This document shows positions 571 to 31,282 of a stretch of 64,000 nucleotides of DNA, piece by piece. The stretch spans positions 143,350 to 207,349 of the forward strand of contig JBNKBE010000003.1 of NCBI GenBank assembly GCA_050287085.1, given 5' to 3'. Positions within the stretch are counted from its first letter, which is position 1; every line of letters begins with the position of its first letter. This DNA is from Polyangiaceae bacterium. Lineage in GTDB: Bacteria > Myxococcota_A > Polyangia > Polyangiales > Polyangiaceae. A program made the translations under genes and the position numbers. The notes beneath the pieces are model-generated. The model was not told the DNA's origin, did not search any database, and saw only the letters and a list, made by a program, of their open reading frames with translations.

Positions 571-1203
571 CTAAAATACGCGTGCAATGACGTAAATGCG
601 ATCGCCTGCCTGCAACGGCACATCCGCCACCAGGCCCGCGCTGATCGCCTCCAGATCGAGATCTGCGGAGCGGGTGCTTCCGTCGGCCAGCGTTCGCGTA
701 AGACGAACGCGGCTGACATTGGCGATCGCGTTGACTCCGCCGGCCTGGGAGACAGCCTGAACGAGCGTCATGCCCTCCACGAAGGGAAAACTCGCGGGGG
801 CTTTGACCTCTCCGCTCACCACGATGCGCTTACTTCGGTAGAGTTTCACGCGAACCATGACCTGCGGATCGTCCCAGATCCCCCCTCGGGTCAGAGCGTC
901 ATGATACCGGACTGCCACCTGGTGCGGCTCCAACCCTTCCACGACCAGTGGCTGCACATAGGGCAGAGCTAAGCTGCCGTCAGCCTGCACCTCGTACTCG
1001 ATCGGCAGATCCTTCTCGCCAACAATCTCGACGGTCAGAAGATCCCCGGGGCCGACCGCCGTGCTCTCGATCGGCGCGGGCAGGGCGAGCCGCGACGTCG
1101 GCTGCTGCGCGGCACACCCGAGCCCCCCGCCGCCAAACATCACCAGGACCATGCCCATTCGGCGACGAAACCGGGTCGCTAGTGAGCCGCTCAGTTGAAC
1201 CAC
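571..1203 (-). CDS. Short OPX (Wza-like) polysaccharide export lipoprotein, D1+D2 only
   Basis: Lipobox-like GLGC; Poly_export motif GPGDLL..EYEVQADGSLALPYVQPLVVEGL; one SLBB domain (VSGEVKAP...QAVSQAGG...LQAGDRIYV); no C-terminal OM helix. The start may be ATG 1158. Confidence 0.9.
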   Translation of the reverse strand: MVQLSGSLATRFRRRMGMVLVMFGGGGLGCAAQQPTSRLALPAPIESTAVGPGDLLTVEIVGEKDLPIEYEVQADGSLALPYVQPLVVEGLEPHQVAVRYHDALTRGGIWDDPQVMVRVKLYRSKRIVVSGEVKAPASFPFVEGMTLVQAVSQAGGVNAIANVSRVRLTRTLADGSTRSADLDLEAISAGLVADVPLQAGDRIYVIARVF

Positions 1204-2597
1204 CGCACCCCTACGAGGGAAGTCACCCGGGAAAAGCGAAGGTTGTCGCGTCGGGTCGGGCGACGCCCCAGGGTGAGCCGATTGTCGTTCAAGCTCGCTG
1301 AGTAGTCGACGCCAGCCGTCAGAGAAAGCGTCTTGAGGAGTCGATACTCGCCGCGAAGCGACACATCCGGGCGCAACTCATCCACCCCACTACCATCCGG
1401 GGTCATAGGGGCACCTTGCGCATTGCGCGGGGGTGGGTGTTTCACGAAGCTCAAGCCTCCGCCCGCCGTTACTGAAGCAACACCCGCAATAAAATAGGCC
1501 ACCTCGGCGTAGGGCCGGAACAGGTCGTAGTAGTTGCCGAGCCCGCTCACCTGCACGTCTCGGAGCGCGCCAACGCGGATCGTCGACAGGCCGACGAGGT
1601 TGCGTCCACCCTCGTTCTTATCCGGTGCGCCGCCGAGGTACCAAGTGGCCTCCGCGCGCCCCACCGCGCCTTCAAAGTCGTCGCGGGAACCATTGGGCCG
1701 TGACTCGTAGAACATGCCCTTCCACCCCCCCAGGACGAGCAGACCGAAGCGCTCCGTGATCAGGCCGTTGATGCCCAGCTGACTGGAAACGGGCTTCGAC
1801 CCCACCTGACGCGTGCCCGGCTGGAGGTATTCGTTGAAGCCAAGCTCGCCCTGATACAGCAGACTCGTACGCGGCAAGAAGCGAAAGCGTCCCTGCATTT
1901 GCAGGCTGTGCGAAAGACGATTGAGCCCGAACTGCGGCGAATCGAACACGGTCAGTTGTGCTGAATAGCCCAGCCCCCACTCCAAGATGCCCCCTCCCGG
2001 CCGCCACTTGAGCATCAGCGCCCCTTCGGAGACCGTACGATTGAGAGGCGCGTATTCGGGTAGATTGTTGGGCTGGGCGATCCGCGCAACGTCACCGCTC
2101 AGCGTCGCTCCCCACGGACGCGCGGGGAGGATATCAACCACAAGCGCACCCTCTGCGCCCAGGAAAGAGCGCTGCGAAACGCGATCGCTATAACGATCGT
2201 CCAGCGCCACGAGCTGATTGAATTGACCCAGCGCCCGGCCCTCGACCAGGACCTTGGGGGGCAGTGGTTGTTCCGTTGGGTCCGCCCGACGGCTAAGATT
2301 GTTGAATCTGATAGCCGGGGTGAGCTGAAAGCGAAGCGTCGGGACGATCGGCTCGCTCACGCCCCACTCGGGTTCGTCTCCCGAGGCGCGGAAGAAGTTC
2401 GAGTCGTACCCGCCTTCCGCGCTAACGCCTCCGTGCAGTTGCAGCGCCCCCATCTGAAAGCCGTTGCCCTCGCCATACCGACGATCCTGCAGCCAGGGTC
2501 CCCCTTGCTGGGCCATCGCAGCGTGGGAGAAGAACACCGCCGCCAACGCCAGCAGCGCGGACAGAAAGCGGTTGGATGAACGTATCGCTTGGGTCAT
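1191..2597 (-). CDS. Outer-membrane beta-barrel, probable OPX partner (EpsX/Wzp-like)
   Basis: Signal peptide (AMA-Q), early GGYDSN motif, many amphipathic beta-strands, C-terminal beta-signal VGVRWFN; overlaps the OPX gene. Confidence 0.75.
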   Translation of the reverse strand: MTQAIRSSNRFLSALLALAAVFFSHAAMAQQGGPWLQDRRYGEGNGFQMGALQLHGGVSAEGGYDSNFFRASGDEPEWGVSEPIVPTLRFQLTPAIRFNNLSRRADPTEQPLPPKVLVEGRALGQFNQLVALDDRYSDRVSQRSFLGAEGALVVDILPARPWGATLSGDVARIAQPNNLPEYAPLNRTVSEGALMLKWRPGGGILEWGLGYSAQLTVFDSPQFGLNRLSHSLQMQGRFRFLPRTSLLYQGELGFNEYLQPGTRQVGSKPVSSQLGINGLITERFGLLVLGGWKGMFYESRPNGSRDDFEGAVGRAEATWYLGGAPDKNEGGRNLVGLSTIRVGALRDVQVSGLGNYYDLFRPYAEVAYFIAGVASVTAGGGLSFVKHPPPRNAQGAPMTPDGSGVDELRPDVSLRGEYRLLKTLSLTAGVDYSASLNDNRLTLGRRPTRRDNLRFSRVTSLVGVRWFN

Positions 2598-2645
2598 CAG
2601 CCTGGGCGCTCGCCCGACGCGCTTGCCGCGCGTCCAAGTTCGCGA

Positions 2646-3395
2646 TCAGTCCACGGCGCTGTTGACCGATGGTGTCACGAGAACCACCGGCGCCAAGTTA
2701 ACGACGTCGGATTGCACGTCGGGCAGTATGTTGTCGATCGACACGGCAAGCTCGCCATCTTCACCGTCCGATGTGAGCGATGTTTCTTCACCCAGGCACT
2801 GCCCCGCCTCATCCCCCAATGCCGCCACTCGATCCGATAGTACCATCACCAAGCTGTAGTGGTGACGCGCGGCCTGGACCGCGCCCGCAGCGTTGGCTTC
2901 CAGCACGCGGTCACGCCGTTCAGCAATCGACGACTGCGCCGCCTCCACTTCGCTGCGCTTGTCATCCAAGCAAAGAGCCCTAACCACATCACCCGCATCG
3001 CGCGCGTCTCTGAGTTGGGACTTGATTCGCTCCCCGATCGCGGTCGCGCGCGCCAAAGCTTCGTCCACACCACTGGACAACTCCGCAACAGAAAGGGCCC
3101 GCCCGCTCGCTGCCACGGGACTCGGCATCGCGTCACCGGCAGAAGACGTCGGCACCGCCGCTGGCTCCTCCTGGTCACTGGCGGCTTCAGCGTTTGCCTG
3201 CGGGGGCGAACCCGCTTGCGCCAGTGCCACGGACGCCTGACAGGGAACACCCAGCGAAAGGCCCAACACTAATAAGCCCCCCAATGAGTGAGGCCTCCGC
3301 CCGACATTGTGGCGTCGCTCGGCTCGCGGGTCCCCACTCTTGAGGCCTTCAGCCGTGACCTTTGCGCTCACGCGCCACCTTCTCCCATCTGCCAT
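2646..3395 (-). CDS. Secreted helical hypothetical protein with a Cys pair
   Basis: Hydrophobic signal region (LLVLGLSLG..ALA-Q), Ala/Pro linker, helical domain with ALCLDDK and AGQCLGEE. Alternative start GTG 3371 has GGAGAAGG upstream. Confidence 0.7.
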   Translation of the reverse strand: MADGRRWRVSAKVTAEGLKSGDPRAERRHNVGRRPHSLGGLLVLGLSLGVPCQASVALAQAGSPPQANAEAASDQEEPAAVPTSSAGDAMPSPVAASGRALSVAELSSGVDEALARATAIGERIKSQLRDARDAGDVVRALCLDDKRSEVEAAQSSIAERRDRVLEANAAGAVQAARHHYSLVMVLSDRVAALGDEAGQCLGEETSLTSDGEDGELAVSIDNILPDVQSDVVNLAPVVLVTPSVNSAVD

Positions 3396-3403
3396 GAGTC
3401 TAA

Positions 3404-3432
3404 AACATACTTGAGAGGTAACAGGGTGTCTA
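3404..3432 (-). promoter_or_regulatory. Candidate sigma70-type promoter TAGACA-N17-TATGTT
   Basis: Minus strand -35 TAGACA (3432-3427), 17-nt spacer, -10 TATGTT (3409-3404), in an AT-rich patch just upstream of ATG 3395. Confidence 0.55.
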
Positions 3433-3570
3433 AGAGATAAGTGCTGTATGTGGCAGCAAAATCCGTCGAACTCTAGGCCTTGCCCCCGCCCGACGCCACC
3501 GCGGCCCCTGGAAACGCCACCCCATTGGGCCGATCTTGCGGATTGCCCTTGAGCCTATCCAAAGCGAAAC

Positions 3571-4995
3571 TCATTGGGCCACAAAAGCGATCGGGACCGT
3601 GACTACGGCGGTGCCGCCATCCGGGGGCGGAAAGCGCAAGCTCTGCGCACGACGCTTGATGCACCCAACAACGCTGGGCGAGAAGTTGCCCGCGACGTTG
3701 GACGCCACGCTCACTACCTCACCCCCTGCCCCCACCTGGAGTCGCAAGGTTATCTTGCCACCGCTATCTGGATTGTTCGCAAGCCCGCTATTGTAGCAAG
3801 CGCGGAAACCGGCGCTGGCCCGCGCTACGACGCGACCGGCTCCCTGGACGTTGCCCGCGACCTGAGCCCCACCAACGCTCGCTTTGCCCTGGGGCCCAGC
3901 GACCTTGGCCACCGCGCCGCTGCCGGATTCCGTCGTCTTGCCCGTGGTTCCAAGGGCCTTCAGTCCTGGCCCTGCGGCTCCCTGCTCAATCGCTCCGCCC
4001 GCGCTACCTACCTTGAGACCACCCGGCCCCCCCGAGGACACACCCACTCCGGACGCCGCAGCCTGATCGATGCGATCAGTAGAAACCGTATCCATTGTAT
4101 CCAACACGTCGGCGGTGGCGGCCTTGCCGGTGTTCGACGCCAAGATGCCCATATCGAGGGAATCAAGTTCGCTTGCCAGCGCGGCGACCTCGGCAGTTGT
4201 CATTTTCTGCGTCGCCTGCTCCGGCGACTTCTGCGGCTTGGGTTTGGGGGTATTGCGCTTCGCGGGCTGCTTTTCGACTTTCGGCTTCTGGTCCTCCGCC
4301 TTCTTTTCGTCGGCCACGTCGGGTTGTTTCTCCTCGACCGGCGGCGGAGGCGGAAGACTCTTGATGCTCTCGACCAGCGCCTGCGCGTCGATGTTTGCGT
4401 CGACGATAGGGTCCATCCAGTCGGAGTAGATTAGCCCCAGCGCGAGGAAGTGTACGAGCGCCGAAAAGGCCGCAATCGTAGTTGTGCGCCAATCCACCCA
4501 CGAGCCCCCTCGCGTGACGGAAACCGGCAGCTGAGGACGAGGTGGGATCGGGGGCGGAGCGACAAACTGGAACAAGAATGCCGTCTCGCCAATGACCACC
4601 TTGCCGCGCGCGTCTTCGTCGAGCCGCAGGGGTAGCACGCGGGCGCCACCTGCCTCTTCGTACGCCTGGGCGATGTCCGTCGCCCCCCCCGGCGTCTTGA
4701 TGCGACCGCTGAGATGGCGGTCGATATTGAGCACGTAGCCATCGCGGGCGCGCTGGAAAAGCGTGTAGCTCGCCGGAACGGAGTCGTGCGCGATAACAAA
4801 GAGGTTCTTCTCGTTCGAACCGACCGTGACGTCACGGCGTTCTTTGATTATCCGCTCTTCAACGACCCGTCCGCCCCTCACCACGCCGATGCGAAGCACG
4901 CGGGGGCCAGCGGGCTGCGCGGCCGCCCGCATGACGGCGGTCATATGCCCTGGTCGCTCTGAGGGGTGCTCTCCTCGATTGGTCTGTTCCACCAT
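3571..4995 (-). CDS. GltG/PglI-like inner-membrane protein (FHA-like N-terminus, TM, TonB-C/AgmX-PglI C-terminal domain)
   Basis: Cytoplasmic beta-domain; TM helix with SxxxH (FSALVHF) as in TonB/TolA; Pro/Lys/Glu then Gly-rich linker; C-terminal FRACYNSGL..NP..GGKITLRLQV..GEV...GCI....LRFPPP.GG...VTVPIAF. Confidence 0.85.
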   Translation of the reverse strand: MVEQTNRGEHPSERPGHMTAVMRAAAQPAGPRVLRIGVVRGGRVVEERIIKERRDVTVGSNEKNLFVIAHDSVPASYTLFQRARDGYVLNIDRHLSGRIKTPGGATDIAQAYEEAGGARVLPLRLDEDARGKVVIGETAFLFQFVAPPPIPPRPQLPVSVTRGGSWVDWRTTTIAAFSALVHFLALGLIYSDWMDPIVDANIDAQALVESIKSLPPPPPVEEKQPDVADEKKAEDQKPKVEKQPAKRNTPKPKPQKSPEQATQKMTTAEVAALASELDSLDMGILASNTGKAATADVLDTMDTVSTDRIDQAAASGVGVSSGGPGGLKVGSAGGAIEQGAAGPGLKALGTTGKTTESGSGAVAKVAGPQGKASVGGAQVAGNVQGAGRVVARASAGFRACYNSGLANNPDSGGKITLRLQVGAGGEVVSVASNVAGNFSPSVVGCIKRRAQSLRFPPPDGGTAVVTVPIAFVAQ

Positions 4996-5139
4996 AGACG
5001 TTTGGTCGGGCTCCCATTTCCCGCGACGGCATACCCTAGCCGGACCTGCGAGCTGTCGCTATGGGCATTGTCGTTTCTACGCGTGTTGTCTCAATGCGGT
5101 CTGGGGGGATCTGGATTGCTTTGCTTGAAACGGGGGCGC

Positions 5140-5670
5140 TCAGCGCGGGCCACGGCTACGGCGATGCAGGCTCGGCACGCAACGCGCCGAGCGCACGTTG
5201 CTGCTTTCCGGTGTATCCCTATCCGACAACGACGCAAGCTCACGAACAATAAAGCGTTGCCAAACCTTGTGCCGGGCCGAAGCGCCACCTCCGACCCGTC
5301 GGCCGAAGGCAACAGAAAAGGCCGTGCAGATCAATGCCAACGCGCCGGCCAACAGCCAGTGCTGCGCGAACACGAAGCGGCCCACCCACAGGACAAGCAC
5401 GGACCAGGCAGCGCCACAACGCACCGCGTAGCGCGCGACCAACCCCGCCTCCGACGCGGTCCGCTCCACCAGGTGACGGAGGTCCACGAGCGATTCGACG
5501 CGCTCAGCAAAGCTGAGTGCGGCTCCAGCCTCCACCCCAGCGCGCAGCATCGGCCCCGGCTTTTCGGGCTCACCCAGCCGCCTCAATCGCAGCTCAGCCC
5601 GGGCCAGAAAGAGCAGTGGCCCCACACACCCTAGAACCAGGAGCACGATGGCTAGAAGCGCCACCACCAC
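5140..5670 (-). CDS. Hypothetical membrane protein (about 3 TM)
   Basis: Co-oriented ORF starting 7 nt after the GltF-like stop; one N-terminal and two central hydrophobic segments. Confidence 0.55.
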   Translation of the reverse strand: MVVALLAIVLLVLGCVGPLLFLARAELRLRRLGEPEKPGPMLRAGVEAGAALSFAERVESLVDLRHLVERTASEAGLVARYAVRCGAAWSVLVLWVGRFVFAQHWLLAGALALICTAFSVAFGRRVGGGASARHKVWQRFIVRELASLSDRDTPESSNVRSARCVPSLHRRSRGPR

Positions 5671-5676
5671 CCGAGG

Positions 5677-5952
5677 TCAGAAGGGTTCCTTCAAGAGCGC
5701 CTTTTCTATCCGATGAAGAAAAGGCTGTCGCAGCGTGGCGAGCGTCATCTTGGGCTGCAAACGACTGACGTCCACCGACGCGATCGGTTTTTGGACGCGC
5801 CCGACGATAGTCACTTCTCCGACGGTGACGACTTCCTCTTCGGCATGCGCCGGAAGGGCTGTCAGCCCCCAGGCCACCACGAGACTGGCCGCCGCGAAAC
5901 GGCCCAATCCTGCCGCCCACCGGGCGCTCGTTTGTTTACTGGAAGCCATCAT
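5677..5952 (-). CDS. GltF/CglF-like small periplasmic protein
   Basis: Signal peptide (AHA-E); motif EVTIVGRVQKP...RQPFLHRIEKALLKEPF; small size and position after a TPR lipoprotein. ATG 5952 chosen as start. Confidence 0.7.
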   Translation of the reverse strand: MMASSKQTSARWAAGLGRFAAASLVVAWGLTALPAHAEEEVVTVGEVTIVGRVQKPIASVDVSRLQPKMTLATLRQPFLHRIEKALLKEPF

Positions 5953-7204
5953 CCCCTGGAGCACTCATAGCTTGAATGATTGTGAGCTTGTGTCGAGCCC
6001 GTTGCAAGAGCTCATCGACGTCGTCCCCCGAGCCCATGGGACTCCTCGGTCGCATCGACTTATAGCGCTCGAAAGCCGCGATGGCGCGTTCGATAGCGGC
6101 CTGTTCACCGACACCATCGACCTTCGAGAACATGTAGACCAGCCCAATGTTGTAGTAGGGAGCCGGGAGCTTCGGCGCGGCTTGAGTGACCCACTCGAGC
6201 TGCGTCAAGGCCTGCTTCGGGCGTCCGCGCAGGCGATAGGCGTCACCCAAGTTCAAGTGCACGAGCGGGTTGGCGGGCTCGAAAGCGAGCGCGCCCTCGA
6301 GCAGGGGAATCGCTTCCATTGAGTTGCCCGCTTCCAACAGGAAGGCCGCGAGATCAACCCTTGCCTCGACAATGTCCGGGCGCAGCTCCACGACACGCCG
6401 CAAATCGGCAATCGCGCCTCGCCGATTGTTTTGCTCCTTGTAGATGAGCGCACGCAGGAGCAGCGCCTCCGGGTTGTCTCGGTCACGTGGGGGATTCTCC
6501 GGGCCATAGCCATCGAGAATCGCGGTCAAGGCGTAGAGTGCGAGGTCGAGCCGACGATTGCGGTAGTGGTCGCGGGCCAAGACCACCATGGCGCCCCGAT
6601 AGTCCGGATCCTGCTTCAGCGCTTGTTGCGCCAGCTGCTGGGCGGCCTGTGAGTCTTTCGAGGCACTCTTGAGTTCCGCCATCGCGGCCAGGACTGCGGC
6701 GCTCGACGGCGCTCGACTTCGGAGCTGACTCAGATAGCCCAGGGCTTCCGCCATCCGCCCGCTCTGGATGTACAGACGCGTGACGGCCTCGACCGCTGGC
6801 GCATACTCTGGCGCCGAAGAAAGTACCTCCCGGTACTGAGACAACGCGCCGCCAACGTCACCGCGACGCTCGGCCACAGCCCCGAGTCCCACATGCGCTT
6901 GATGGGCGTCGGGCTGCGCCGCGAGCGCCTCGCGAAACGAGCGCTCCGCCGCAGCGAGGTCCCCGGCAGCAAAAGCGCGCTGTCCGGCGCCCAAGGCGGC
7001 ACCCGCTGAAGCGTTCAATTCGATCACCCTGGGCTTCGGCCGCTCTGGCTCGGCCTTGACGACAGGGGGCGGTGGCAAGAGCTCGTCCTTCTGTTCCCCC
7101 GCCGTCGCGACCTGAGCTGTGGGGGCCCCGCCGCCGCACCCCACAAGCATCAGGCTCAGCACCGAGCCGAAGCGCACGAGCGTGCTACCCCACGCGCCGC
7201 TCAC
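5936..7204 (-). CDS. TPR lipoprotein, GltE/AglT-like
   Basis: Lipobox LMLVGC; tandem TPR repeats; GTGA overlap with the upstream gene. Confidence 0.8.
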   Translation of the reverse strand: MSGAWGSTLVRFGSVLSLMLVGCGGGAPTAQVATAGEQKDELLPPPPVVKAEPERPKPRVIELNASAGAALGAGQRAFAAGDLAAAERSFREALAAQPDAHQAHVGLGAVAERRGDVGGALSQYREVLSSAPEYAPAVEAVTRLYIQSGRMAEALGYLSQLRSRAPSSAAVLAAMAELKSASKDSQAAQQLAQQALKQDPDYRGAMVVLARDHYRNRRLDLALYALTAILDGYGPENPPRDRDNPEALLLRALIYKEQNNRRGAIADLRRVVELRPDIVEARVDLAAFLLEAGNSMEAIPLLEGALAFEPANPLVHLNLGDAYRLRGRPKQALTQLEWVTQAAPKLPAPYYNIGLVYMFSKVDGVGEQAAIERAIAAFERYKSMRPRSPMGSGDDVDELLQRARHKLTIIQAMSAPGDDGFQ

Positions 7205-10200
7205 TGCCCCACCTCCACCGCCACCGGAGCTACCGGAGGCAGACCGTTTGGCTCGGGTGAGGTCACCAAGCCGGGTCGGATCCGCAGGAACATCCCCGGT
7301 CGATAGTCGAGCCCCTGCACCCGTGCGGTATAGCTCTGGAGTTTTGCCTCACCAATCACATCGGTGAAGAAGCTCAAGCGCTGTATGGCGCGAACGACAG
7401 CAGGCGTCGAAACGTTGTAGCGGCGCGCCATCGCGATGGCGTTGCCGTAACGAGCCACCATGATCTGGTCGGCTGAGGTCAACTCCCGATCGCGAGCGTC
7501 GCGCCACTGATTCTCGACGCGGACCCGAATGGCGTCCGCTTTTTCCTGCAGCACGGGATTATCACTCTCCTCAGCTAGACGCAGCTTCTTCTCGGTAGCC
7601 GCGTCGAACATCTGCAGCTCAGGAGGTCGCGCATTGAATAGCCCCGTCCGAAGCGAGTCGTACAACGTCCCCTGGCGGGCAACGGCCGCGGTCGCCCACT
7701 CGGGCGCGGCATAGTCGTCGACAACACGCTGCAGTCGGTCGAACCATTGTTTTGCATCGGAGGCCGCGGCCCGATAGGCCGTCAACACCTCTTGCGGGGT
7801 TCCCTTGAAATGGTGATACCCCGCGTCGTAGTCAAACGCCTGCGCGAGTTGGCGATCGAGCATGATGTAGGCCCCCTCGGCGGCCATTGCCGCAACGCGC
7901 CCGCCCAGAGCTGAGCTAGAGCCGTCCGCCGCGCGCGGTGCGGTAGCTTTGTGTTGCGCGAAGGCGTTCATCGCTCGCTGCCACCACACGGAGTCACCGG
8001 ATCCGTCCGCCTGGCGCATCTTCGCAACCCAGTAGGCCGCCTCGACAACGTAGGGAGCCGCGGCCAGATTATCTGCGTTCTGTCGATAGTAGGCGCTCAT
8101 CGCGCTTTCCGCCTCAGCCCGGGCCCGCGCATTGGCTCCCGTGTTTGGGCTGAATTGGTCCCAACGCTTCAAGGGAGCACCTGCCAAGACGAAATCCGCC
8201 TCCGCTCGCGTTGCGGCGTCAGGCCCAAGACCGACAAGTGCGGTGTGGGTACGGCGCATGCCCGCCTTGTCCCCCAGGCTGGCGTAGAGGCTGAGCGCCT
8301 GCTGCGCGGCCTCCTGCCGTGCGGCAGGCGCAAAGTGTTGAACTCCCGCGATCGTATCAAATGTGGAAGCCGCCTTGGGGTAGTCGAAAAACAACACGTT
8401 GGCGCTGGCCAGCGCGTCGTAGGCCAGTTTCAGAAACTTCACCCGAGCAGCGTACTGAGCTGGATCTGCCGCAACGGGCGGAGACGCTGCGGCGTCACCG
8501 TTGACCAGTTGCTGCAACTTCGTTTCGCTGCCGTAGCGAGAAATGAACAGCTCGTACATTTCAATCGCCTTGTCGTACTCACCCACCTGCTTGTAGGCAA
8601 AGGCACCGTTCATTGCCGCCTCGGGAGCTTCGTCCCGATCAGGAGCTGCGTCCAAGGCCTTCTTATACGCGGCCGCCGCCTCCCGCCACTTGGCGTCGCG
8701 GTCGGCTCCTGCAGGCAAGGCCTCAGCCGCATCGTACAACTCGCGGGCATCGAGGTAAGCCACCCCTTGACGAACCGGTTTCCGAATTGCGTCTTCTTTG
8801 GCGCGCGTCTCCTCGTCGAAAGCGCAACTACGACCGTCAGCAAGCTCGCGGCTTCGGGCCGCGTCGCCTTCGAAGTTGCTCATACTCAGGAGCATCTCCC
8901 ACGCTCGATAACCCCACTCATTGCGACCGCAGTGCTGCTCCAGAATCGCTTCGAAACGGGGTCTGGCGTGCTTGAAGTCCCCGTAGACGAAGAATAGCTC
9001 GGCAGCCTGGAACGCGTAGGTCAGGCCATTTTTCTGCGGATCGTTGGCGAGTTCGATGCGACGATTGTAGTCGTCCCGCGCCAGCGCCGCGCGGAGCACC
9101 GCCTTGGGAACAGGCTCCTGCACCACCTGGCGATCAGCACCCGTCCCAGAAAACTCGACGTTGTCGCGTCGCCGAAGCCCCAAAGCACCACCCGTTTGCT
9201 CGTACAGGCGGTACTGATCTTCGAGCACTTGGTCTGCCACGCTGACGACGTAGTAGGCTGCCGGCTGGAGGTAAAGGTCGTCCTCGTTGGAGTCTCGCAC
9301 ATCTTCGGCGGCGGCAATGGCGCGCTCAACCTCTTCAGCAGCAGGTGTCACTCGATTTTCGACCTGCGTCGATACGAGGCCATGTAGGGCATCCGCCAGC
9401 CAGAAGCGACTCTCGTAGGCGTCCACCGCATTCGGATTCTGATCGATATACGCCGCCCACCCCTGCGCTGCCTGTTGATACTCGTCTGTCGCCTTGGCCA
9501 GCAGGGTCCCTTTTGCAGAGGAGCTCTGCACCTCGGCCGCCCGCGCCAGATAGGCGCGAGCAAAGTTCGTGTGATCGGCTGCAGCTCGTTGCAACCCGAC
9601 GCGCACGAGCTCCTCGGCCTCGATCAAAGCCTCAGGATCATCTTCGTTGGCTTTCTTCCAAGGGCTATCGCCGACGAAGGCAGACAGTCTGGTCCGAGCG
9701 GCGAGCGCCAGCGCGTTGAGCTCATCCTGCGCTGCAGAGCCCTCCTTGGCCTGCCGAGCCAGCTCGTCGTAGATGTCTGCAGCCCGAGCTTGCAGCTTAG
9801 GCGCGTCGCGATCCAGCCCAAACTTGGCGAGCGCCAGCTCGAGCGCCTGGACAGCGTTGTGTAGTTGCCCCATCTCGGAGAACTCACGCGCGAGGGCCTT
9901 GTAGATCTCGACGGTCCACTTCTCCTCTTGAGGGATCAGACGCGGATCCTGCAGTCGAGTCAGAGCCACGCTCATCTTGCGCTCGGCAACGATGGGATCT
10001 GGCTCGAGATCCAACACGTCGTTGCGCGGAATGTAGGGGTGAGCGGGCGGCGGCCCCGCAAAATCCACATAGGTCAACGAGGCGGCGATATACGTATAAG
10101 CCTCCTCCCGAAAGTCGGTCCCAGGATCCCCCGTTTCGGCCTCGAGCTCGTCGGCATGCTGCAAGAGCTGAACGAAGGCCTGCACAGTCGGCTGATAGCG

Positions 10201-11376
10201 CTGCTCCCTAAACAGGGTCCAGGCCAACTTGTAGAGGGCTACGCCGTAGAGCGGTGGTTTCCTGTATTGGAGTGAATGCTGATACGCGGAGAGCGCTCGA
10301 TTGAAAGCATATGGCCCGGCCCCCGTATCCAGCTGATCGAAATGGAAATTGCCGAGTTGCCACCAAACCTCCGCAACGTAGCGAGGCTCCTGCCCAGGCA
10401 ATACCTCCTGTACGATCGCCTCGCAATCCTCGTAGGGGTCGACGAAACGCAGTTCTTCATCGCGCGCCGCAACCCCCCCCGCGACGATGCTCGCATCATC
10501 GCTTCCGACCTGGTCGAGCGGCAACGGATGACGCCCGTACCATTCCCCCCAGAACTCTTCATCGTGGTCTTGCGCAAGCGGCTGCGGCTTGAGATCGCGC
10601 GTCACGGTGAAGCGATTCTCACAGACCAGGGCTCGCCAAACCTGCTGAGCCTGCTCCAACTCGGCCACGTCGTTGAGAGCGTGTCCCAGATAGTAGTGCA
10701 CCCCCGCGCGCTCCTTGTAGCCCGGAAACTGGTCGATGATGCCAAGGTACAGAGCTATCGAAGGCCCCAGCGCAGCTGGCAGCTTTTCAGCCGGCCCCAG
10801 CCGCGCTTTCTCCTCTTTGAGCGCCGCCAGCCGATACATAGCATCCGGGGTCGCTTCCGGATGTGAGTTGGCGCCCCCGTAGCGATCAAGGAAAGCTTCC
10901 AGTCGCCGGATTGCCTCATCGCGCGCCGCATCAAGCTGCTCACGTTCTACAGCAATCTGCTTGTCGAGTTCCTCGATCACGCGTCGCCGCCGTTCCTTGA
11001 AGTGATGGCGAACAATGATCGACAACAACTGCTCGTAGTCTTCAGCAGCGGCCACATAGGTCGCCGTCTCCTCTCGCAGCTCAGACAACGCCCGCACTTG
11101 CTCGGGAGAAGGCCCAGCTGGCGGTGGAGTAAGCGCGGCAACACTGCTAGACGCGGCGGGCGGCACGGCGGCTCCCGATTCGCCCCCTTCCTGGGATGAA
11201 GCAGCGCCACCAGAAGCGCTCGCCGCCCCCGCCGCTGGCTCTGAGACGGCGCTGTCGTCCGGCTCAACCGACTCCCCCTGGCCCGACTTCTGCTCCACAG
11301 CTCGGGCTAGATGAACGGCCAAGACAAGCGACGCTGCCAACCCATAGACCGCCACGCCGCGACCTTTGCGGCTCAT
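7201..11376 (-). CDS. Large periplasmic TPR protein (1391 aa), GltD/AgmU-like
   Basis: Signal peptide; TPR/YfiO-like helices (TPDAMYRLA, VALYKLAWTLF, AAMNGAFAYKQVGEYDKAIEMYELFI); ATGA overlap; order D-E-F-G as in glt/nfs clusters. Confidence 0.8.
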   Translation of the reverse strand: MSRKGRGVAVYGLAASLVLAVHLARAVEQKSGQGESVEPDDSAVSEPAAGAASASGGAASSQEGGESGAAVPPAASSSVAALTPPPAGPSPEQVRALSELREETATYVAAAEDYEQLLSIIVRHHFKERRRRVIEELDKQIAVEREQLDAARDEAIRRLEAFLDRYGGANSHPEATPDAMYRLAALKEEKARLGPAEKLPAALGPSIALYLGIIDQFPGYKERAGVHYYLGHALNDVAELEQAQQVWRALVCENRFTVTRDLKPQPLAQDHDEEFWGEWYGRHPLPLDQVGSDDASIVAGGVAARDEELRFVDPYEDCEAIVQEVLPGQEPRYVAEVWWQLGNFHFDQLDTGAGPYAFNRALSAYQHSLQYRKPPLYGVALYKLAWTLFREQRYQPTVQAFVQLLQHADELEAETGDPGTDFREEAYTYIAASLTYVDFAGPPPAHPYIPRNDVLDLEPDPIVAERKMSVALTRLQDPRLIPQEEKWTVEIYKALAREFSEMGQLHNAVQALELALAKFGLDRDAPKLQARAADIYDELARQAKEGSAAQDELNALALAARTRLSAFVGDSPWKKANEDDPEALIEAEELVRVGLQRAAADHTNFARAYLARAAEVQSSSAKGTLLAKATDEYQQAAQGWAAYIDQNPNAVDAYESRFWLADALHGLVSTQVENRVTPAAEEVERAIAAAEDVRDSNEDDLYLQPAAYYVVSVADQVLEDQYRLYEQTGGALGLRRRDNVEFSGTGADRQVVQEPVPKAVLRAALARDDYNRRIELANDPQKNGLTYAFQAAELFFVYGDFKHARPRFEAILEQHCGRNEWGYRAWEMLLSMSNFEGDAARSRELADGRSCAFDEETRAKEDAIRKPVRQGVAYLDARELYDAAEALPAGADRDAKWREAAAAYKKALDAAPDRDEAPEAAMNGAFAYKQVGEYDKAIEMYELFISRYGSETKLQQLVNGDAAASPPVAADPAQYAARVKFLKLAYDALASANVLFFDYPKAASTFDTIAGVQHFAPAARQEAAQQALSLYASLGDKAGMRRTHTALVGLGPDAATRAEADFVLAGAPLKRWDQFSPNTGANARARAEAESAMSAYYRQNADNLAAAPYVVEAAYWVAKMRQADGSGDSVWWQRAMNAFAQHKATAPRAADGSSSALGGRVAAMAAEGAYIMLDRQLAQAFDYDAGYHHFKGTPQEVLTAYRAAASDAKQWFDRLQRVVDDYAAPEWATAAVARQGTLYDSLRTGLFNARPPELQMFDAATEKKLRLAEESDNPVLQEKADAIRVRVENQWRDARDRELTSADQIMVARYGNAIAMARRYNVSTPAVVRAIQRLSFFTDVIGEAKLQSYTARVQGLDYRPGMFLRIRPGLVTSPEPNGLPPVAPVAVEVGQ

Positions 11377-13754
11377 TGTGTGGCCTCCTGCTCCAACACT
11401 TCGCGAAGCTCACCGTCCAAGGCCCGCTCTTCGCGAGCGCGCGCCCGCTGCAAGGTCTGCAAGCGCTCCAAATGGCGTGCCCGAACCTCCCAGGCTTGCT
11501 GGGCAATGCCAATGTCGGCGCGCATCACAATGCTGCGCAGCCGCTTGCCGACGACCGCAAAGCCGTCTTTTGCCGCTTCTCCAATCCAGCGACGACTGCT
11601 GCTTTCCACCCGCTCGAGGCCTTCTTTTTGTGAAGTCATCTGCGCCGCCTCAGCCGCGACTTTCACCCGCAGAGCCCCAACCCCGCTCTCGATCTCGCGT
11701 TCAAGGGCAGCACGCCGCTGCGCCAGCCGCGTATCAGCCGCCTGCAGACGCTGCCAAACAGAGGCCGCAGCCTCCGCAAACGCTCGAGCTTGCGGTCCCG
11801 CCACCCCTGAGGCGGCAAGCTCGAACTCACGCCCAAACGCCTGGCTGAACTCATGCTTGACACGTTCGTCACTCGCGGTCCGAACGTCGCCAAAGCCCAC
11901 CTGAAGCCGACCCAAATCAATCGCCTTGCGCAAGGCGTCCACCCGCGCGCGGTAGTCTGCGAGCTCCTTGTGCGTGCGAACCAGCTCCTGTTCAATGCGC
12001 CCTTGGAGGCCCGGCCGATTCGAGACGCCAAAGCGGTGAGCCTCCCGCAGTACCCGCTCCAAGCCGTTGGCGATGGCACGCAGCTTGTCCGTCTCCAACT
12101 CCACGCGCTGCAACTGCTGCGAGAGGCTCAGCCATTCTTTGCGAGCCGCGCCGTCGCGCTCGGCAAAGTCGCGCCGGGTCAGGGGCAACCATTCGAAGCG
12201 AGACATGAGGGGCGCCCGTTGGGCCCGCAACGCAGCCCCCTCAGCGTTGGGCGCTGCGAGCTCGTCATAGGCCAAAGCCAACGCGTGCCTTCCCCGAGCA
12301 ATGCGGTTTTGCAGGCCCACGGTCAGCATGAGCTTCGCGCGCAGCTCTGGCATAGCGCCCGTGCGGGCAGGCGAGTCAAGCACCGCGTTCATGCGCGCCA
12401 CCATATCTTCGGATTCTGTCACCAAGCGTCGAGAACGGGAGATGTCATCGATCAGAGCAAAGACCGGATCCTCCTGCTCTTGACCCAACCAATCCAGCAA
12501 CAAGGGCGGCAGCGGCTGGTCCGAGGACACCCCCAGACGGCTGTCTAGCAGACGCTCGTAGTACAGCTCGGGCTCGTCGTGCGCGCGCAGGAACTCTTCA
12601 ATCTGCTCCTGCACTGGGGCAAACTCCCGACGGACTTTGCGATAGGCATAGAGCGCATCTTCATACTGCTGAGCACGAAGCATGAGATCTGCCCGCAGGA
12701 GCTCTCCCTCCGCGAACTCCAACTCCTCAGGGGCGACCACGCTGAGCACCTCCAGGGCCCGCTGCGCCTCTTCGTAGTCTTCAAGCGCAATATAGGCCCA
12801 ACCCAGCTCCGACAATGCAGTGGGAAACTCCTTTGAGTCTTCCGGGACGTGACGGTAGGCGTCGACGGCGTCCAATGCGTTGCCGGTTTCGTAGAAAATG
12901 CGAGCCAAGGCGAGCCACGACAACTCGACTACCTGGCGCTGCTCTTCGCTATCCGGCTTCAAGCGCGTGACGTACTGAAACTGCAGAATCGGCCGGGCCA
13001 GGTGTTTGGCGCTGTCTGGAACTGTCGCCGCCTGCTTCGCGTCGGGTGCCACCGGGGGCTCAGCCATGGCGCCGCGTAGATACAACACGCCGAGCAAATA
13101 CTGGGCCTGCGGGTATAACGAAGCGAGCTTCGGAACCGCTCTGACGGCCGCCTCGGCGTCCCCCAACGCGCCAACGGCGTAGTGGGCCTTGGCGCGGGCG
13201 TACGCCCGAATCCCCGTCTTGTCCGGCCCCTGGAGGGTGTCCAATCTGGAGAGCAGCGCGGGAATAGCGTCCGGCCGATCGGTGCGCAGCGCCACGTCGA
13301 CCGCACGCCCCACGGCGCGCCCCAAGTAGGCTGAATACGGGTCGCGGTCCCCAAGACCTACGAGCTGCTCATAGCGATGAAGCGCTGTCAGCAGCTGCCC
13401 ATCGTGAAAGTAGGCCTCGCCGAGCATGAACAACGCATCAGCGTGGGTCGCAGCGCCAACCTGGCCTTGGGCGGCAAGCTCCACCACCTGGTGGAGGATA
13501 TCAATGGCGCGCTCGTAGTTCTTCTGCACCAGGTAGATTTCGGCGCCGGCCAGGCGCTGCTCAGGGGTCGCGCGCGGCGACTTCCACGCCCGCTCAAGCT
13601 CCTTCTCACGCCCCGCTACGACGCTTAGCGCGTCCTGCGCCTGGGACAACGCCTCGGACTCCGACAACGCGGCAGCGGGCGTCGTGAAAAGCGACGCCGT
13701 CGCTATGTACAGCAAAGCGGCGCTGGTGCGCGCAGCCGTGACGGCTTTCCGCAT
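11373..13754 (-). CDS. Periplasmic TPR + coiled-coil protein (GltC-like position)
   Basis: Signal peptide; TPRs (DALFMLGEAYF, QAQYLLGVLY, TALSELGWAY); long C-terminal coiled coil. ATG 13754 follows AAGAGG (ORF track start 13778). Confidence 0.8.
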   Translation of the reverse strand: MRKAVTAARTSAALLYIATASLFTTPAAALSESEALSQAQDALSVVAGREKELERAWKSPRATPEQRLAGAEIYLVQKNYERAIDILHQVVELAAQGQVGAATHADALFMLGEAYFHDGQLLTALHRYEQLVGLGDRDPYSAYLGRAVGRAVDVALRTDRPDAIPALLSRLDTLQGPDKTGIRAYARAKAHYAVGALGDAEAAVRAVPKLASLYPQAQYLLGVLYLRGAMAEPPVAPDAKQAATVPDSAKHLARPILQFQYVTRLKPDSEEQRQVVELSWLALARIFYETGNALDAVDAYRHVPEDSKEFPTALSELGWAYIALEDYEEAQRALEVLSVVAPEELEFAEGELLRADLMLRAQQYEDALYAYRKVRREFAPVQEQIEEFLRAHDEPELYYERLLDSRLGVSSDQPLPPLLLDWLGQEQEDPVFALIDDISRSRRLVTESEDMVARMNAVLDSPARTGAMPELRAKLMLTVGLQNRIARGRHALALAYDELAAPNAEGAALRAQRAPLMSRFEWLPLTRRDFAERDGAARKEWLSLSQQLQRVELETDKLRAIANGLERVLREAHRFGVSNRPGLQGRIEQELVRTHKELADYRARVDALRKAIDLGRLQVGFGDVRTASDERVKHEFSQAFGREFELAASGVAGPQARAFAEAAASVWQRLQAADTRLAQRRAALEREIESGVGALRVKVAAEAAQMTSQKEGLERVESSSRRWIGEAAKDGFAVVGKRLRSIVMRADIGIAQQAWEVRARHLERLQTLQRARAREERALDGELREVLEQEATQ

Positions 13755-13761
13755 GCGCCTC

Positions 13762-14643
13762 TTACTTGACCTCGTCATCGGTCAGCGCTTCGCTGCGGTC
13801 GCGCACTTTCTGCACGAATCGCAACGCGGGACGCTGCTCCACCGGAGTGGTTGCGCTCCCCTTTTCCCAGAGCACAACCTCGACCTTGGCGCTCTTGCCC
13901 TCATCGACGGTAAACGAGTGGGTCCGTTTGGCTTTGGGCTTGTACGCCTTCAGATAAGAGAACACCCCGTAGCCGTGTCCTCGCATCCCTACCACGACCT
14001 GGAGCGTATGATCGCCAGGCGGGACAGGGCCGCTGAAAATTGGGATGAGCTTCTGGGTGGACAACACCCCAGTCGCGTCCTCCTTTTTGTACTGAACAGC
14101 CCCGTCCATAACAAAGAGCAGACTCGTGATGCGAAACGCATTGCCGAGTTCGTTGCGAAAGACGATCTCGGCGTGGGCTCCCCCAAGTCCACCGGACAAG
14201 ATCGTATCGCTCAGCAAGGACAAGCGAGTGTGACTGGCGCGGATCCTCTCTTTCAGCTCGTCCACGCGACTCTCCAGATCGCGAAGTCGGATCCGATAGT
14301 CCGAGTCGGTACCTTTGGGAGCCGCTGAGCCCGGTGCCGCCGCCGTTGGAGTAGCGGGCGGCGGAGACTGAGCCGCAGGCTTCTTCGCCGCCGCTGGAGG
14401 CGGAGGCGGCTTCGTCGCGGACGCCTTCTTGTTGTCAGGCTTAGCGGGCTTTGACTTATCCGAAGGCGCGGCTGCAGGGGGCGCGGGCACGGCGGACTTA
14501 CGCCCGCTTGCGCTCGCGGCTGGAGCCGCCGTCGCCTGGGAGTCTGCGGGAGCTGCCCACGCCCCAACGGCCCCCCAGGACAGCGCGAGCCACACGCTCA
14601 ACACCATCCAGAACTTCCTCGTGCCCACTTCGCCGTTCCTCAT
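13762..14643 (-). CDS. Secreted hypothetical protein: Pro/Ala/Lys linker, coiled coil, beta-sandwich domain
   Basis: Signal peptide (AWA-A); LRDLESRVDELKERI coiled coil; beta-rich C-terminus (IFSGPVPPGDHTLQV..RGHGYGVFSYLK); GTGAGG RBS. Confidence 0.8.
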   Translation of the reverse strand: MRNGEVGTRKFWMVLSVWLALSWGAVGAWAAPADSQATAAPAASASGRKSAVPAPPAAAPSDKSKPAKPDNKKASATKPPPPPAAAKKPAAQSPPPATPTAAAPGSAAPKGTDSDYRIRLRDLESRVDELKERIRASHTRLSLLSDTILSGGLGGAHAEIVFRNELGNAFRITSLLFVMDGAVQYKKEDATGVLSTQKLIPIFSGPVPPGDHTLQVVVGMRGHGYGVFSYLKAYKPKAKRTHSFTVDEGKSAKVEVVLWEKGSATTPVEQRPALRFVQKVRDRSEALTDDEVK

Positions 14644-14711
14644 CGCGTCCTCACCACGCCCGCGCGAACCCCAAAGAGCCTGGAATTCTCTGGTACTCTA
14701 GCGAGAGAGCC

Positions 14712-14835
14712 CATCCAATCGAGGAAAAAAACGCGGAAAGTCCCGACCGCGAGTGGATTCCCCTCGGAATCCGCCGACGACCGGCGATGTCGGCGCCTGG
14801 GAGCCCCAGCGGAGACAAAACGGCTCGATTCGATG
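14712..14835 (-). ncRNA. Candidate structured leader RNA (five-way junction with U7 tract)
   Basis: 11/12-bp closing stem (14712-14723 with 14824-14835) enclosing four hairpins; see findings. Confidence 0.35.
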
Positions 14836-15156
14836 CCATGACTCAAGGCCCGCCCGCCGGTAAGACGGCCGCGCCCCCTCGGGGATGAGGTCTTCTGGTT
14901 GAGTAGCAGCCCCCCCGACATTGGCTCCGACCGGCGACCGCAGCGGTCAACACTTGGGCGGGCGCAGCAGGCGAACAGCGGGGCCTGGGAAGTGGCCCGC
15001 GTCACCGATGGCGTGCATGCACAGCACCCAAGCCAAAAAGCAAGTCCCGCGACGGACGACCAAGCGCCGCGCGGGTGCGGCGTAACGCCCTCCGTCCTAG
15101 ACCTGGTTGAGACCTAGTCAGCGGAGCGCCAGACTCGCGAGGACCCGCCGCGCCAC

Positions 15157-16095
15157 GTGACCACCCTGCTATCCATCAAGTCGTTGGCAAGACTTGGGCT
15201 CGCCGACGAGCACACACTTCTAGTGAGAAAATGTGGCGGCAGCATGCGAATCCCTGTAGAGCCACATGTGAATTGCTTTGCGCCAGAATTGAGGCGCGAG
15301 CAAGAGATCAGCCTGGTACACTTTCACGACGCCAAGTCGTACGGCGCGACCGTCCGGCGGTCGGTCGTCACCTTGTGTTTTCATGTCGCCACGGGACGTG
15401 CTGCCGCGCCCCTCTCACCGTTGCGAAGTCTATTGCCAGCCTCGAGAGCCAAGCCTACGTCCGCGAAGAAGTCCCTGTCGCCCAACGACGCCTCGGGTGT
15501 GGCGGACGAATTGTTGATGGTGCGCTACCAACGCGGCGACCGCAAAGCGTTCGCAACCTTGGTTGAACGTCATCATCGCCCACTGTACAACTTCGTCCTA
15601 AGACTGGTCGCCGATGGCAGCGTCGCCGAGGAGCTGACCCAGGAGACTTTCCTGCGGGTGGTACAAAGGGCTGCCGACTTCAAGCACGAAGCCCGTTTCT
15701 CGACCTGGCTCTACGCCATCGCCCGCAATCTGTCGATCGACCACCTCAGAAAACGCAGGCTGCGTCAGCACCCCTCGCTCGATCAGTCCCGGACTCGTGA
15801 CCCGGAGGGGCCAACCTTGCGCGAAGCCCTGCCAGATCTTCATCCGCGCTCGAACGTCGAACGCACTGCTGTTTCGGGACAGATCGCTGACACGCTGCTG
15901 GAGGCGGTGGCAGCCCTGCCTGAAGATCAGCGGGAAGTGTATTTGCTCCGTGAAATCGCAAACTTGCCATTCAAGGAAATCGCCGAAGCGACCGACAGTG
16001 GCGAAAACACGGTCAAGAGTCGAATGCGCTACGCCCTGGAACGACTGAAGCTGGCCTTGGGGGACTTCGAAGAGTATGCGCGCGAGCTCAAGTAG
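15157..16095 (+). CDS. ECF RNA polymerase sigma factor
   Basis: Region 2 DELLM..GDRKAF...AEELTQETFL...FSTWLYAIARN..IDHLRK; region 4 LPEDQREVYLL...FKEIAE...TVKSRMRYA. The real start is probably downstream (TTG 15421 or GTG 15499). Confidence 0.95.
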   Translation: MTTLLSIKSLARLGLADEHTLLVRKCGGSMRIPVEPHVNCFAPELRREQEISLVHFHDAKSYGATVRRSVVTLCFHVATGRAAAPLSPLRSLLPASRAKPTSAKKSLSPNDASGVADELLMVRYQRGDRKAFATLVERHHRPLYNFVLRLVADGSVAEELTQETFLRVVQRAADFKHEARFSTWLYAIARNLSIDHLRKRRLRQHPSLDQSRTRDPEGPTLREALPDLHPRSNVERTAVSGQIADTLLEAVAALPEDQREVYLLREIANLPFKEIAEATDSGENTVKSRMRYALERLKLALGDFEEYARELK

Positions 16096-16112
16096 CCAAT
16101 ATAAGGTGCCCA

Positions 16113-17237
16113 GTGCCGATGGATTGTGAGAAGTTCGACAACATCGTCATGGATCTGCTCTGCGGCGAGCTGGAGGAGCTGCCTCGTGCCGCGGCCCTGC
16201 GGCACATTCAGCAGTGTAGTCGCTGTCGAACCCAACTTGCTGAATGGCGGGCAACGCGCGAGGTGGCTCAGCTGCCGCTGGTGGATCCGCCCGAGGGGCT
16301 GGCGTTGCGTATCATCAACGCGGAGCGCGAGGTCCGCCGCGAGTTGCCTCTCGGCGCGCGCATCAGCCGAGCGCTGACAATTGCAGCCGGTTACGCGATG
16401 CGACCGCAACTCGCCATGGCGGCGCTGCTGGTGTTGATGGTTGGAACCGGCCTATTGCTGCTTCGCCCGCGCCCAGGGGCCCATTCGGTGGTGCGGGTTA
16501 CCGAGCAGGGAGTGCCCGCTACCGACCAAGAGCTCGTCGTAACCCTCGAGAAGCCTGTAGCGGAGCCGGTGGCCCCAGCGGCCCCGACGGCCCCCACGGC
16601 CGAGCCAACCCACACGCCGGCGGACAAGGCTGCCAGCGCGAGCAGCGACGTCGCCACCCAGCCGGCGTCCCCCCGCATCGCTGTGGCCATTGCCGCCACG
16701 GAGGCCAAAGGCCTAACCCATGAAGAGGACGCGCCCGAGGGTGAGGCTGTCGAGCCAGAGCTGGCACTCGCCGAAGACCAGCTGTATTCGGCCGCGATGG
16801 CGTCCTTTCGAGCCGGCGACTTCACCGGTGCCTTGAATCAGTTCGACGCACTGGCCAAGGGCGGCGGGAAGAACAGCGCCGCCTCCGAGTTTTACGCAGC
16901 GCTGGCCATCGAGCGTGCCGAAAACTGTGCCGCGGCCCTACCCCGCTTCGACGCGGTCTCTGCCCGCAACCCAAGCAACGATCTCGGGCATCAAGCGACG
17001 TGGCATAGCGCCAGCTGCCGCGTCCAGCTTGGGCAGGTGAGACGGGCGACGCTGGATCTGGGCAAGCTCTCCCGAGTCCCGGCTTATGCGCGGCAGGCCA
17101 CTCAAGCCCTGGCACAATTAGGTCAGGGCGCGGGCCCCCAGCAGGCCGCCAAAGCCGCAGCGCCCCGCCCGGCCTCGGCCAAGAAGACCGCGGGCTCCGC
17201 GGAACCGGCTTCAGGCCAGGACCCTGTCGCGCCCTGA
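16113..17237 (+). CDS. Zinc-binding anti-sigma factor with TM and periplasmic TPR/YbgF-like domain
   Basis: ZAS motif HIQQCSRC (Hx3Cx2C); TM AMAALLVLMVGTGLLLL; Pro/Ala linker; TPR-like C-terminus. Confidence 0.9.
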   Translation: MPMDCEKFDNIVMDLLCGELEELPRAAALRHIQQCSRCRTQLAEWRATREVAQLPLVDPPEGLALRIINAEREVRRELPLGARISRALTIAAGYAMRPQLAMAALLVLMVGTGLLLLRPRPGAHSVVRVTEQGVPATDQELVVTLEKPVAEPVAPAAPTAPTAEPTHTPADKAASASSDVATQPASPRIAVAIAATEAKGLTHEEDAPEGEAVEPELALAEDQLYSAAMASFRAGDFTGALNQFDALAKGGGKNSAASEFYAALAIERAENCAAALPRFDAVSARNPSNDLGHQATWHSASCRVQLGQVRRATLDLGKLSRVPAYARQATQALAQLGQGAGPQQAAKAAAPRPASAKKTAGSAEPASGQDPVAP

Positions 17238-24009: not shown

Positions 24010-24143
24010 CCAGGATCATAGGGCACCTGCCCCACAGTCACCAGGCAGGAAGCCGCTCCCAAGCTTTGCCCGGGCCGTTGGTCGACGAGACGCCCCCAAG
24101 CGCGCCTGGCGGCCGCGGCCAAGGCAGGTATGCTCGCCGAACC

Positions 24144-28768: not shown

Positions 28769-28783
28769 GTATGCTGCCGCGTC

Positions 28784-30564: not shown

Positions 30565-30658
30565 CACGAGCCATCGCTTCGACCCAACCGACGCCCACGG
30601 CTTCAACCAAGCGCCCGTCGGTGCAAACGCCCAGCGCCCCGACGCGCCCAGCGCGGGC

Positions 30659-31211: not shown

Positions 31212-31282
31212 CAGCTTTAATGCGTTGAGGGACTGTCGAGGGCAATCCCGAGGCGAGGCCTCATACCCGAAAGCATCAAACC

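Follow-up and report, generated by a model that had tools for sequence, protein, structure and literature searches.

A probable orthologue of the Myxococcus xanthus G4 cluster and its WzpB/WzaB pore in a Polyangiaceae genome, with a likely relic of the motor gene aglR

Does a set of Glt-like envelope proteins that is encoded next to a polysaccharide secretion pore act on that pore, and what would drive it? The question is raised by a 64,000-nucleotide stretch of contig JBNKBE010000003.1 (assembly GCA_050287085.1; hereafter the window) from a Polyangiaceae bacterium with a genome of 6.2 Mb (96.8% complete). The window carries a minus-strand run of eleven open reading frames (ORFs), faced by a divergent plus-strand pair. 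An initial annotation, made from the sequence alone, read this run as a further paralogous machine with two extra subunits that uses proton motive force to extrude or spread a surface polysaccharide. ORF calls and family scans bear out the genes, their order and orientation and the overlapping stop and start codons described there. Our analysis indicates that the run is very probably the Polyangiaceae orthologue of the G4-wzpB-wzaB genes of Myxococcus xanthus and that one of its genes is most likely a decayed aglR. We lean, if only narrowly, towards a reading in which this G4 orthologue and its pore form an Agl-Glt-type machine, with a motor encoded elsewhere, that assists a Wzx/Wzy polysaccharide on its way through the pore or away from it.

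The operon and its counterpart in Myxococcus xanthus

The minus-strand run opens with the gene of a secreted protein that consists of a coiled coil and a C-terminal beta domain (13762-14643, 293 aa). The protein has no Pfam match and found only hypothetical clusters of Myxococcota in an Atlas search; as the conserved first gene, it precedes gltC in 16/20 near-relative and 18/20 distant loci. Then follow a GltC-like tetratricopeptide repeat (TPR) protein of the G4 type (11373-13778, 801 aa; NF033756, E 1e-14), a GltD-like TPR scaffold (7201-11376, 1391 aa) that belongs to no named family in Pfam or NCBIfam, and a GltE-like TPR lipoprotein (5936-7204, 422 aa) with a lipobox-like LVGC motif, whose match to NF033758 (E 2e-28) stays under the model cut-off. 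The small secreted protein encoded at 5677-5964 (95 aa) is called GltF-like on the basis of position and size (MXAN_1920 has 91 aa in Table S3 of PMC3169522); Pfam and NCBIfam models gave no match, and an alignment of 21 loci points to a family of beta-strands with a C-terminal helix and PF at the end. Consecutive genes share four bases at their stop and start codons (11373-11376 and 7201-7204) or overlap further (13762-13778, 5936-5964 and 1191-1203).

After a gene for a membrane protein with three transmembrane (TM) segments (5140-5670, 176 aa), the run continues with a GltG-like TonB-type transducer (3571-4995, 474 aa; E 7e-20 to NF033760), built of a cytoplasmic domain, a single TM segment, a Pro/Gly-rich linker and a TonB-C domain. 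Its alignment covers model positions 187-645 and leaves out the first FHA domain of the gliding GltG, and its profile matches TonB structures. Both this short form of GltG and the clustering of homologues of gltC, D, E, F and G in this sequence are characteristic of a G4-type core cluster. The SxxxH motif pointed out by the initial annotation is indeed present in the TM segment (as SALVH). As a hallmark of the GltG family it had to be dropped: it occurs in 86/99 Polyangiales sequences but in only 1/13 of the others with a locatable TM segment. Three related proteins of 922-937 aa (P0029, P0035 and P0036, our labels) carry a full G4-type GltG in their C-terminal half and further matching stretches upstream, and are probable duplications or fusions.

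The last genes of the run include those of the pore. A secreted helical protein with two conserved Cys (2646-3395, 249 aa; real start probably downstream of the called one) belongs to a family in which Cys142, His178 and Cys200 are at least 90% conserved, and Atlas searches gave a name neither to it nor to the first-gene protein. Its gene adjoins the barrel gene even in the two loci where the remaining genes are missing (L017, L115). Many of these Cys-helical proteins and the GltF-like proteins end alike, with a Pro-aromatic C-terminus (PF, SPF/SPY) after a short beta-like segment, which is possibly a shared docking signal. The WzpB-type outer-membrane barrel (1191-2597, 468 aa), single-copy in the genome, was modelled by AlphaFold with 18 long strands (pLDDT 89); porins, AlgE and Wzi are its top fold matches. 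Its profile found no solved relative by sequence, and a homologue search returned 11 proteins, none usefully named. A complex prediction of barrel and Cys-helical protein (score 0.02 versus a mark of 0.32, controls not folded) counts neither way. The adjacent gene encodes a class-3 (D1-D2) outer-membrane polysaccharide export (OPX) lipoprotein of the WzaB subfamily (571-1203, 210 aa; PF02563 plus SLBB), with Cys30 at least 90% conserved and an aromatic end (RVF), and is followed by maf. A profile of 22 such operon OPX proteins scores WzaB (PDB 9N9A) at 223.6 bits versus 138.8 bits for the best Wza, and the second OPX of the genome (on contig C10, with its own flippase and Wzy-like neighbours) has no such preference (61.7 versus 58.6 bits).

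A very similar set is known from M. xanthus. G4 comprises MXAN_1923, 1922, 1921, 1920 and 1919 (809, 1111, 490, 91 and 447 aa; PMC3169522), and MXAN_1916/1915 are WzpB/WzaB of the biosurfactant polysaccharide (BPS) pathway (PMC9603273, PMC7310880, PMC12819527). The two sets share the order C-D-E-F-G, barrel, OPX, with no GltA/B/H listed and with motor and wzc elsewhere, and their lengths are 809/1111/490/91/447/421/204 aa in M. xanthus and 801/1391/422/95/474/468/210 aa here. Since order, lengths, WzaB profile score and the 18-strand barrel match all agree, orthology is likely. The initial annotation, which suggested that such a glt-paralogue/wzaB neighbourhood may exist in M. xanthus, was correct in this and in treating the genes as a Glt paralogue; what falls is the idea of a further unknown one, because G4 had already been described and lies next to WzpB/WzaB. 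The two differ in that the window has an extra gene between F and G, where MXAN_1920/1919 are consecutive tags, and in the divergent ECF/anti-sigma pair. In Sorangium, sce5945-5942 and sce5940 are listed and sce5941 is skipped (Table S3 of PMC3169522); sce5941 falls at the position of the extra gene, and order and lengths fit MXAN_1923-1919 and sce5945-5940. In the label lists of the 2011 trees (Fig S4 of PMC3169522) CAN96109 and CAN96107 of Sorangium stand beside MXAN_1923 and MXAN_1921, and CAN96104 does not stand beside MXAN_1919; we infer which sce tags these accessions match. The genes themselves are thus already known in M. xanthus and Sorangium. In the same paper the function of G4, G5 and M2 is given as unknown and its available part has no mention of 'wza', and PMC7484181 states that MXAN_1915 belongs to no polysaccharide cluster.

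That the genes are an ordinary gliding GltC-G or Nfs set is very improbable. Family scans of the window (Poly_export plus SLBB, TPRs, Maf) also returned GltC, GltE and GltG matches, as such a set would, but these are weak and below cut-off, and a better gliding candidate lies on another contig. The cluster at C4:11341-33077 holds a gliding-type GltC (277 versus 54 bits for the window protein to NF033756), an FHA-type GltG (315 versus 71 bits) and a 3352-aa GltI-like TPR gene. Profiles built outside Polyangiales point the same way: the GltC-position profile gave the window protein 401 versus 115 bits, the GltD-position profile 353 bits versus 211 for the gliding-cluster GltD, and window genes came first at 8/9 positions, the GltE profile being tied with the long TPR gene. 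This test is not fully independent, because the non-Polyangiales loci had been picked with Polyangiales-built profiles. Every ORF of the run is accounted for and none is GltA/B/H/I/J/K-like; the 474-aa GltG-like protein is not the FHA-bearing form of about 650-720 aa of the gliding clusters (G1/G2), and instead of the nfsA/B/H barrels and FHA-bearing NfsG of G3 there is a single 468-aa barrel of another type. No operon gene has a close paralogue in the genome, and the separation from the gliding set made by the initial annotation stands.

The motor site between gltF and gltG

Outside Polyangiales the gap between gltF and gltG measures 2.1-2.8 kb and in 17/18 loci holds one TolQ-like and two ExbD-like genes (aglR/Q/S-type); four of these loci also have wzc just downstream. 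This is the gltC-D-E-(x)-aglR-Q-S-gltG order of the Agl-Glt core complex of Geobacter, Gammaproteobacteria and Plesiocystis (PMC3169522), which in its Myxococcota version is extended by the secreted first gene, the genes of Cys-helical protein and barrel and, in most cases, the OPX. Plesiocystis accessions EDM80280-80286 run consecutively through the C, D, E, R, Q, S and G trees of that paper, which implies that a complete operon with its own motor was already in the 2011 dataset; the in-operon motor is therefore not wholly new. In Polyangiales the gap is mostly below 1.1 kb and contains a single membrane ORF in 84/89 loci and none in five. In the genome studied here Q and S have been lost from the operon, with no aglQ/aglS (ExbD-type partners) in the slot, and the ORF at 5140-5670 remains.

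The slot gene of Polyangiales is, judging from its profiles, a fast-evolving AglR/TolQ derivative without the channel motifs. Of the 84 ORFs, 56 were outside the set used to build the profile. The family aligns with intact slot AglR over 175 columns (hhalign E 4.6e-5, probability 68%), and in other families of the order two members reach E 1e-12 to 1e-13 with the AglR profile. Mean column identity is 23% versus 63% in intact AglR; the channel motif GLLGT occurs in 0/32 members versus 16/16 intact AglR, and TTxxGL is missing in 29/32. PF01618 matches 3/32 members, the window's not among them. The window protein is among the most eroded of the family: default filters missed it with a leave-out profile, and an unfiltered search found it with 15.3 bits versus a maximum of 4.0 in 500 shuffles, 7th of 30,749 ORFs and behind six ORFs that overlap AglR-profile hits. 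Foldseek listed PomA/ExbB/TolQ at weak E-values (0.3-1.5), and a wider search gave generic helical bundles. Homology to the three-TM body of MotA/TolQ/ExbB thus holds for the slot family and is weak for the window member alone, at those 15.3 bits. All in all, the gene is most likely a decayed aglR. This modifies two statements of the initial annotation. That no aglRQS lies in the window is only half right, because there is no intact set and yet most likely a decayed aglR; and of the two extra subunits one, the 3-TM protein, is most likely the decayed AglR.

Because one likely decayed gene stands here in place of the three-gene motor of most distant relatives, the motor of this machine is likely encoded at another site. 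A candidate motor and a Wzc are present in trans, as had been anticipated. Two complete aglRQS-type sets lie head to head at C8:82119-86978, like sce2991-2996, and the same arrangement is found in 4/4 other Polyangiales checked and in G126. All five Polyangiales genomes examined (the present one, G468, G037, G031 and G040) and G126 have two AglR copies; G041 and G106, which lack a barrel match, have one each. The candidate cognate motor is the minus-strand set at C8:82119-83976 (sce2991-2993/M2 type): in-operon Q and S profiles score it at 61/127 bits versus 35/51 for the plus set, and the leave-out profile of the decayed R ranks its AglR first (24.9 versus 9.2 bits). The 2011 trees (PMC3169522) list the Sorangium counterparts of this set next to Plesiocystis and MXAN_3003-3005. 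In our AglR and R+Q+S trees the motor groups form a polytomy. In three genomes (G167, G060, G157) a gliding-type GltC is present and only the in-operon AglR scores high, so that this motor may serve several machines. The one full-length Wzc, kinase-fused as a PCP-2a partner of such a pore would be, is encoded at C4:220132-222258 beside sugar genes.

Conservation of the linkage and the possible role of the machine

The gene order is conserved far beyond chance. Among the closest 80 named loci, mostly from Polyangiaceae and with Sorangium among them, the Cys-helical, barrel and OPX genes follow the GltG-like gene in 62/63 Polyangiaceae loci that extend at least 4 kb further downstream, and C, D and E are present in 54/54 with enough upstream DNA (F in 53). 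In 20 loci sampled from 37 relatives with a barrel match, the run from first gene through G is complete in 16, ended by a contig or locus edge in three and broken in L017. Across a phylum sample of 151 genomes a barrel was found in 115 and a GltG-like match in 123, several families having neither. Taking the best barrel match of 114 genomes and the best G match of 101 (from the best 150 of 478 G matches), the two genes lie within 3 kb on one strand in 90/98 genomes with both among the matches listed, 68 of them outside Polyangiales; in the remaining eight they are on different contigs (seven) or 7 kb apart (one). The C-to-G run stands ahead of the barrel in 18/20 distant loci, with the OPX directly after the barrel in 13. 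The linkage of Glt-like and pore genes assumed from the start is therefore conserved across the phylum sample.

Polysaccharide genes recur at or inside the operon. Wzc follows the OPX directly in G060, G072, G073 and L109, whereas in G137 a UDP-sugar dehydrogenase gene stands between the two; nucleotide-sugar genes sit between the gltG-like and Cys-helical genes at L015:5700-14800, there with a glycosyltransferase, and at L016:11900-14400. A single-contig genome of the same family of only 1.8 Mb (G126) keeps the whole operon including the decayed aglR (L156, G126:C1:1240000-1259900), Wzc, two AglR copies and a gliding-type GltC. In G064 (L154/L155, G064:C1:282000-306000) the first gene and C-D-E-F lie on one strand and barrel-OPX-wzc 12 kb off on the other, with neither G nor motor in the 28 kb examined; a simple loss of G4 in that family (f27) is ruled out by the inverted remnant.

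How could such a machine work? By analogy with the predicted Glt model (PMC11761067), the GltG-like arm would be driven by an AglR5QS channel that acts on its TM segment; the arm would hold GltF and GltD with its TonB-C end, and GltC would be turned towards the outer membrane. The WzpB-type barrel would be the outer-membrane end of the machine, because G4 has no GltA/B/H barrels, and OPX and Wzc would feed the polymer. The C8 minus-strand set (sce2991-2993/M2 type) would serve as motor and the decayed AglR as a non-conducting partner kept by selection. A precedent may be seen in the Agl-Nfs spore-coat machine, likewise a Glt paralogue with its power source in trans and a link to a Wzx/Wzy polymer (PMC3858216); it differs in its GltA/B/H-type barrels, its FHA-bearing 682-aa NfsG and a pore that is not co-located, whereas here the pore genes are in the same run. 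MXAN_3003 did not bind GltG or NfsG in that study. The pore resembles the WzaB-WzpB and EpsY-EpsX translocons (PMC9603273, PMC12819527) in its Phe-ended D1-D2 lipoprotein, its neighbouring 18-strand barrel and a kinase-fused Wzc in the genome. The recurring wzc and sugar genes, the slot motor in 17/18 loci and the retention in G126 count in favour of the proposed export role. Whether machine and pore are functionally coupled we regard as evenly balanced, and the role is probably accessory (in release, in spreading or under certain conditions) rather than obligatory.

A number of observations weigh against coupling. A polar insertion in MXAN_1922 and a deletion of the M2 gene MXAN_3004 left motility normal (PMC3169522), in contrast to the severely impaired swarm spreading of wzaB and wzpB deletions; the normal movement of the insertion mutant disfavours a strict requirement for G4. 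The published conduit WzcB-WzaB-WzpB is described as complete, with Glt unmentioned in the parts available, and the Arg106-Arg107 motif with which WzaB binds WzcB (PMC9603273, PMC12819527) is replaced here by DD, at positions that vary across the family; the exported polymer need not be BPS. The OPX does not follow the barrel in 7/20 distant loci, 16 genomes have a barrel without a G4-type G among the matches listed, an inversion parts gltF from the pore in G064, and related genomes are not independent counts. The AU tests on the R+Q+S tree reject neither grouping (p 0.39, 0.20). Finally, the match to M. xanthus G4 is an indirect one, by order, lengths, WzaB match and tree labels: the 10 accessions looked up out of 150 GltG-like proteins (444-450 aa) included none from M. 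xanthus, and 0/401 genomes passed the gliding GltG model at E 1e-170 in a search with a stricter first look.

The contrast between mutants, the seven loci without OPX and the separated genes of G064 and L017 would all suit G4 and pore being old neighbours with shared expression and separate work, G4 acting like Tol-Pal or TonB in outer-membrane upkeep or on a cargo of protein or lipid. Housekeeping would also fit the survival of the operon in a genome of 1.8 Mb, and the related core complex of Gammaproteobacteria and Geobacter is of unknown function (PMC3169522). We nevertheless consider separate work unlikely, at about one chance in three at best, in view of an adjacency of G and barrel that outlasted motor loss and large divergence and of the wzc and sugar genes noted above. 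A Polyangiales machine without energy input, in which the decayed AglR caps the GltG-like helix and the whole serves the pore passively, as scaffold or assembly factor, would explain the absence of aglQ/S from the slot, the missing motifs and the low column identity; it is improbable, given that two AglR copies are kept, one set resembling the in-operon motor, and that the GltG-like family is well conserved (51% column identity). The proposed export role of a trans-powered machine can be extended only tentatively, to a doubtful scenario: G4-aglRQS-barrel-OPX-wzc would be the ancestral self-contained proton-driven polysaccharide exporter of Myxococcota, TonB-like but directed outward, and the gliding and spore-coat machines would have taken their motor from it; G4 and M2 of M. 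xanthus would be its two halves and the dead AglR of Polyangiales a pseudo-stator.

Neighbouring genes and implications

The divergent pair consists, as initially annotated, of an ECF sigma factor (15157-16095, plus strand) and a ZAS-type anti-sigma factor (16113-17237, plus strand). The former has sigma regions 2 and 4 only and matches PRK12513 (218 bits, cut-off 206) from residue 114, its true start being probably near 15499; the latter has HxxxCxxC, a TM segment and a periplasmic TPR-like end, with weak anti-sigma and TPR matches. The pair accompanies the operon in 13/20 Polyangiales loci but in 0/20 outside, and was rejected as part of the conserved unit; because the pairing was seen only in Polyangiales, its control of the operon is unsupported. 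Convergent on the anti-sigma gene lies that of a 773-aa multi-TM protein (17310-19631, minus strand) without a Pfam or NCBIfam match at E 0.01, which looks by eye like a membrane glycosyltransferase extended by a periplasmic tail. At a distance of about 7 kb from the sigma/anti-sigma pair, a CpsB/CapC-family (Wzb-like) tyrosine phosphatase (24066-24905, plus strand; PF19567, E 1e-37) could act on the Wzc of the genome. A plus-strand run at 26631-33613 (Ser/Thr kinase, FGE-sulfatase, TPR, zinc-ribbon/FHA and PP2C phosphatase genes) is likely a signalling module, and the gene at 41945-44302 (plus strand) encodes a 785-aa protein with a C-terminal GH12 glucanase domain.

A search by tag found no literature on MXAN_1917, 1918, 1919, 1921, 1923 or 1924, and none of these tags is in the available supplement of PMC7484181. 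The link between G4 and pore, its synteny across the phylum and the decayed AglR were not found in the openly available literature, including the accessible parts of PMC7484181, PMC3858216, PMC4880591 and bioRxiv 10.64898/2026.09.26.754727; subscription papers were outside this coverage, and figures S1, S2, S3 and S5 of PMC3169522, Fig 3B of PMC7484181 and Agrebi 2015 may show part of the synteny.

The proposal joins three loose ends of M. xanthus, namely G4, M2 and the 'orphan' wzaB/wzpB, in one testable hypothesis. If true, a proton motor, which is missing from the current published model, would help polysaccharide export through a class-3 OPX pore, and the decayed AglR would be unusual in that an entire order has retained a dead stator subunit. 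It would also bear on the origin of gliding, which Agrebi et al. in 2015 reportedly traced to capsule assembly, to go by the title of their work.

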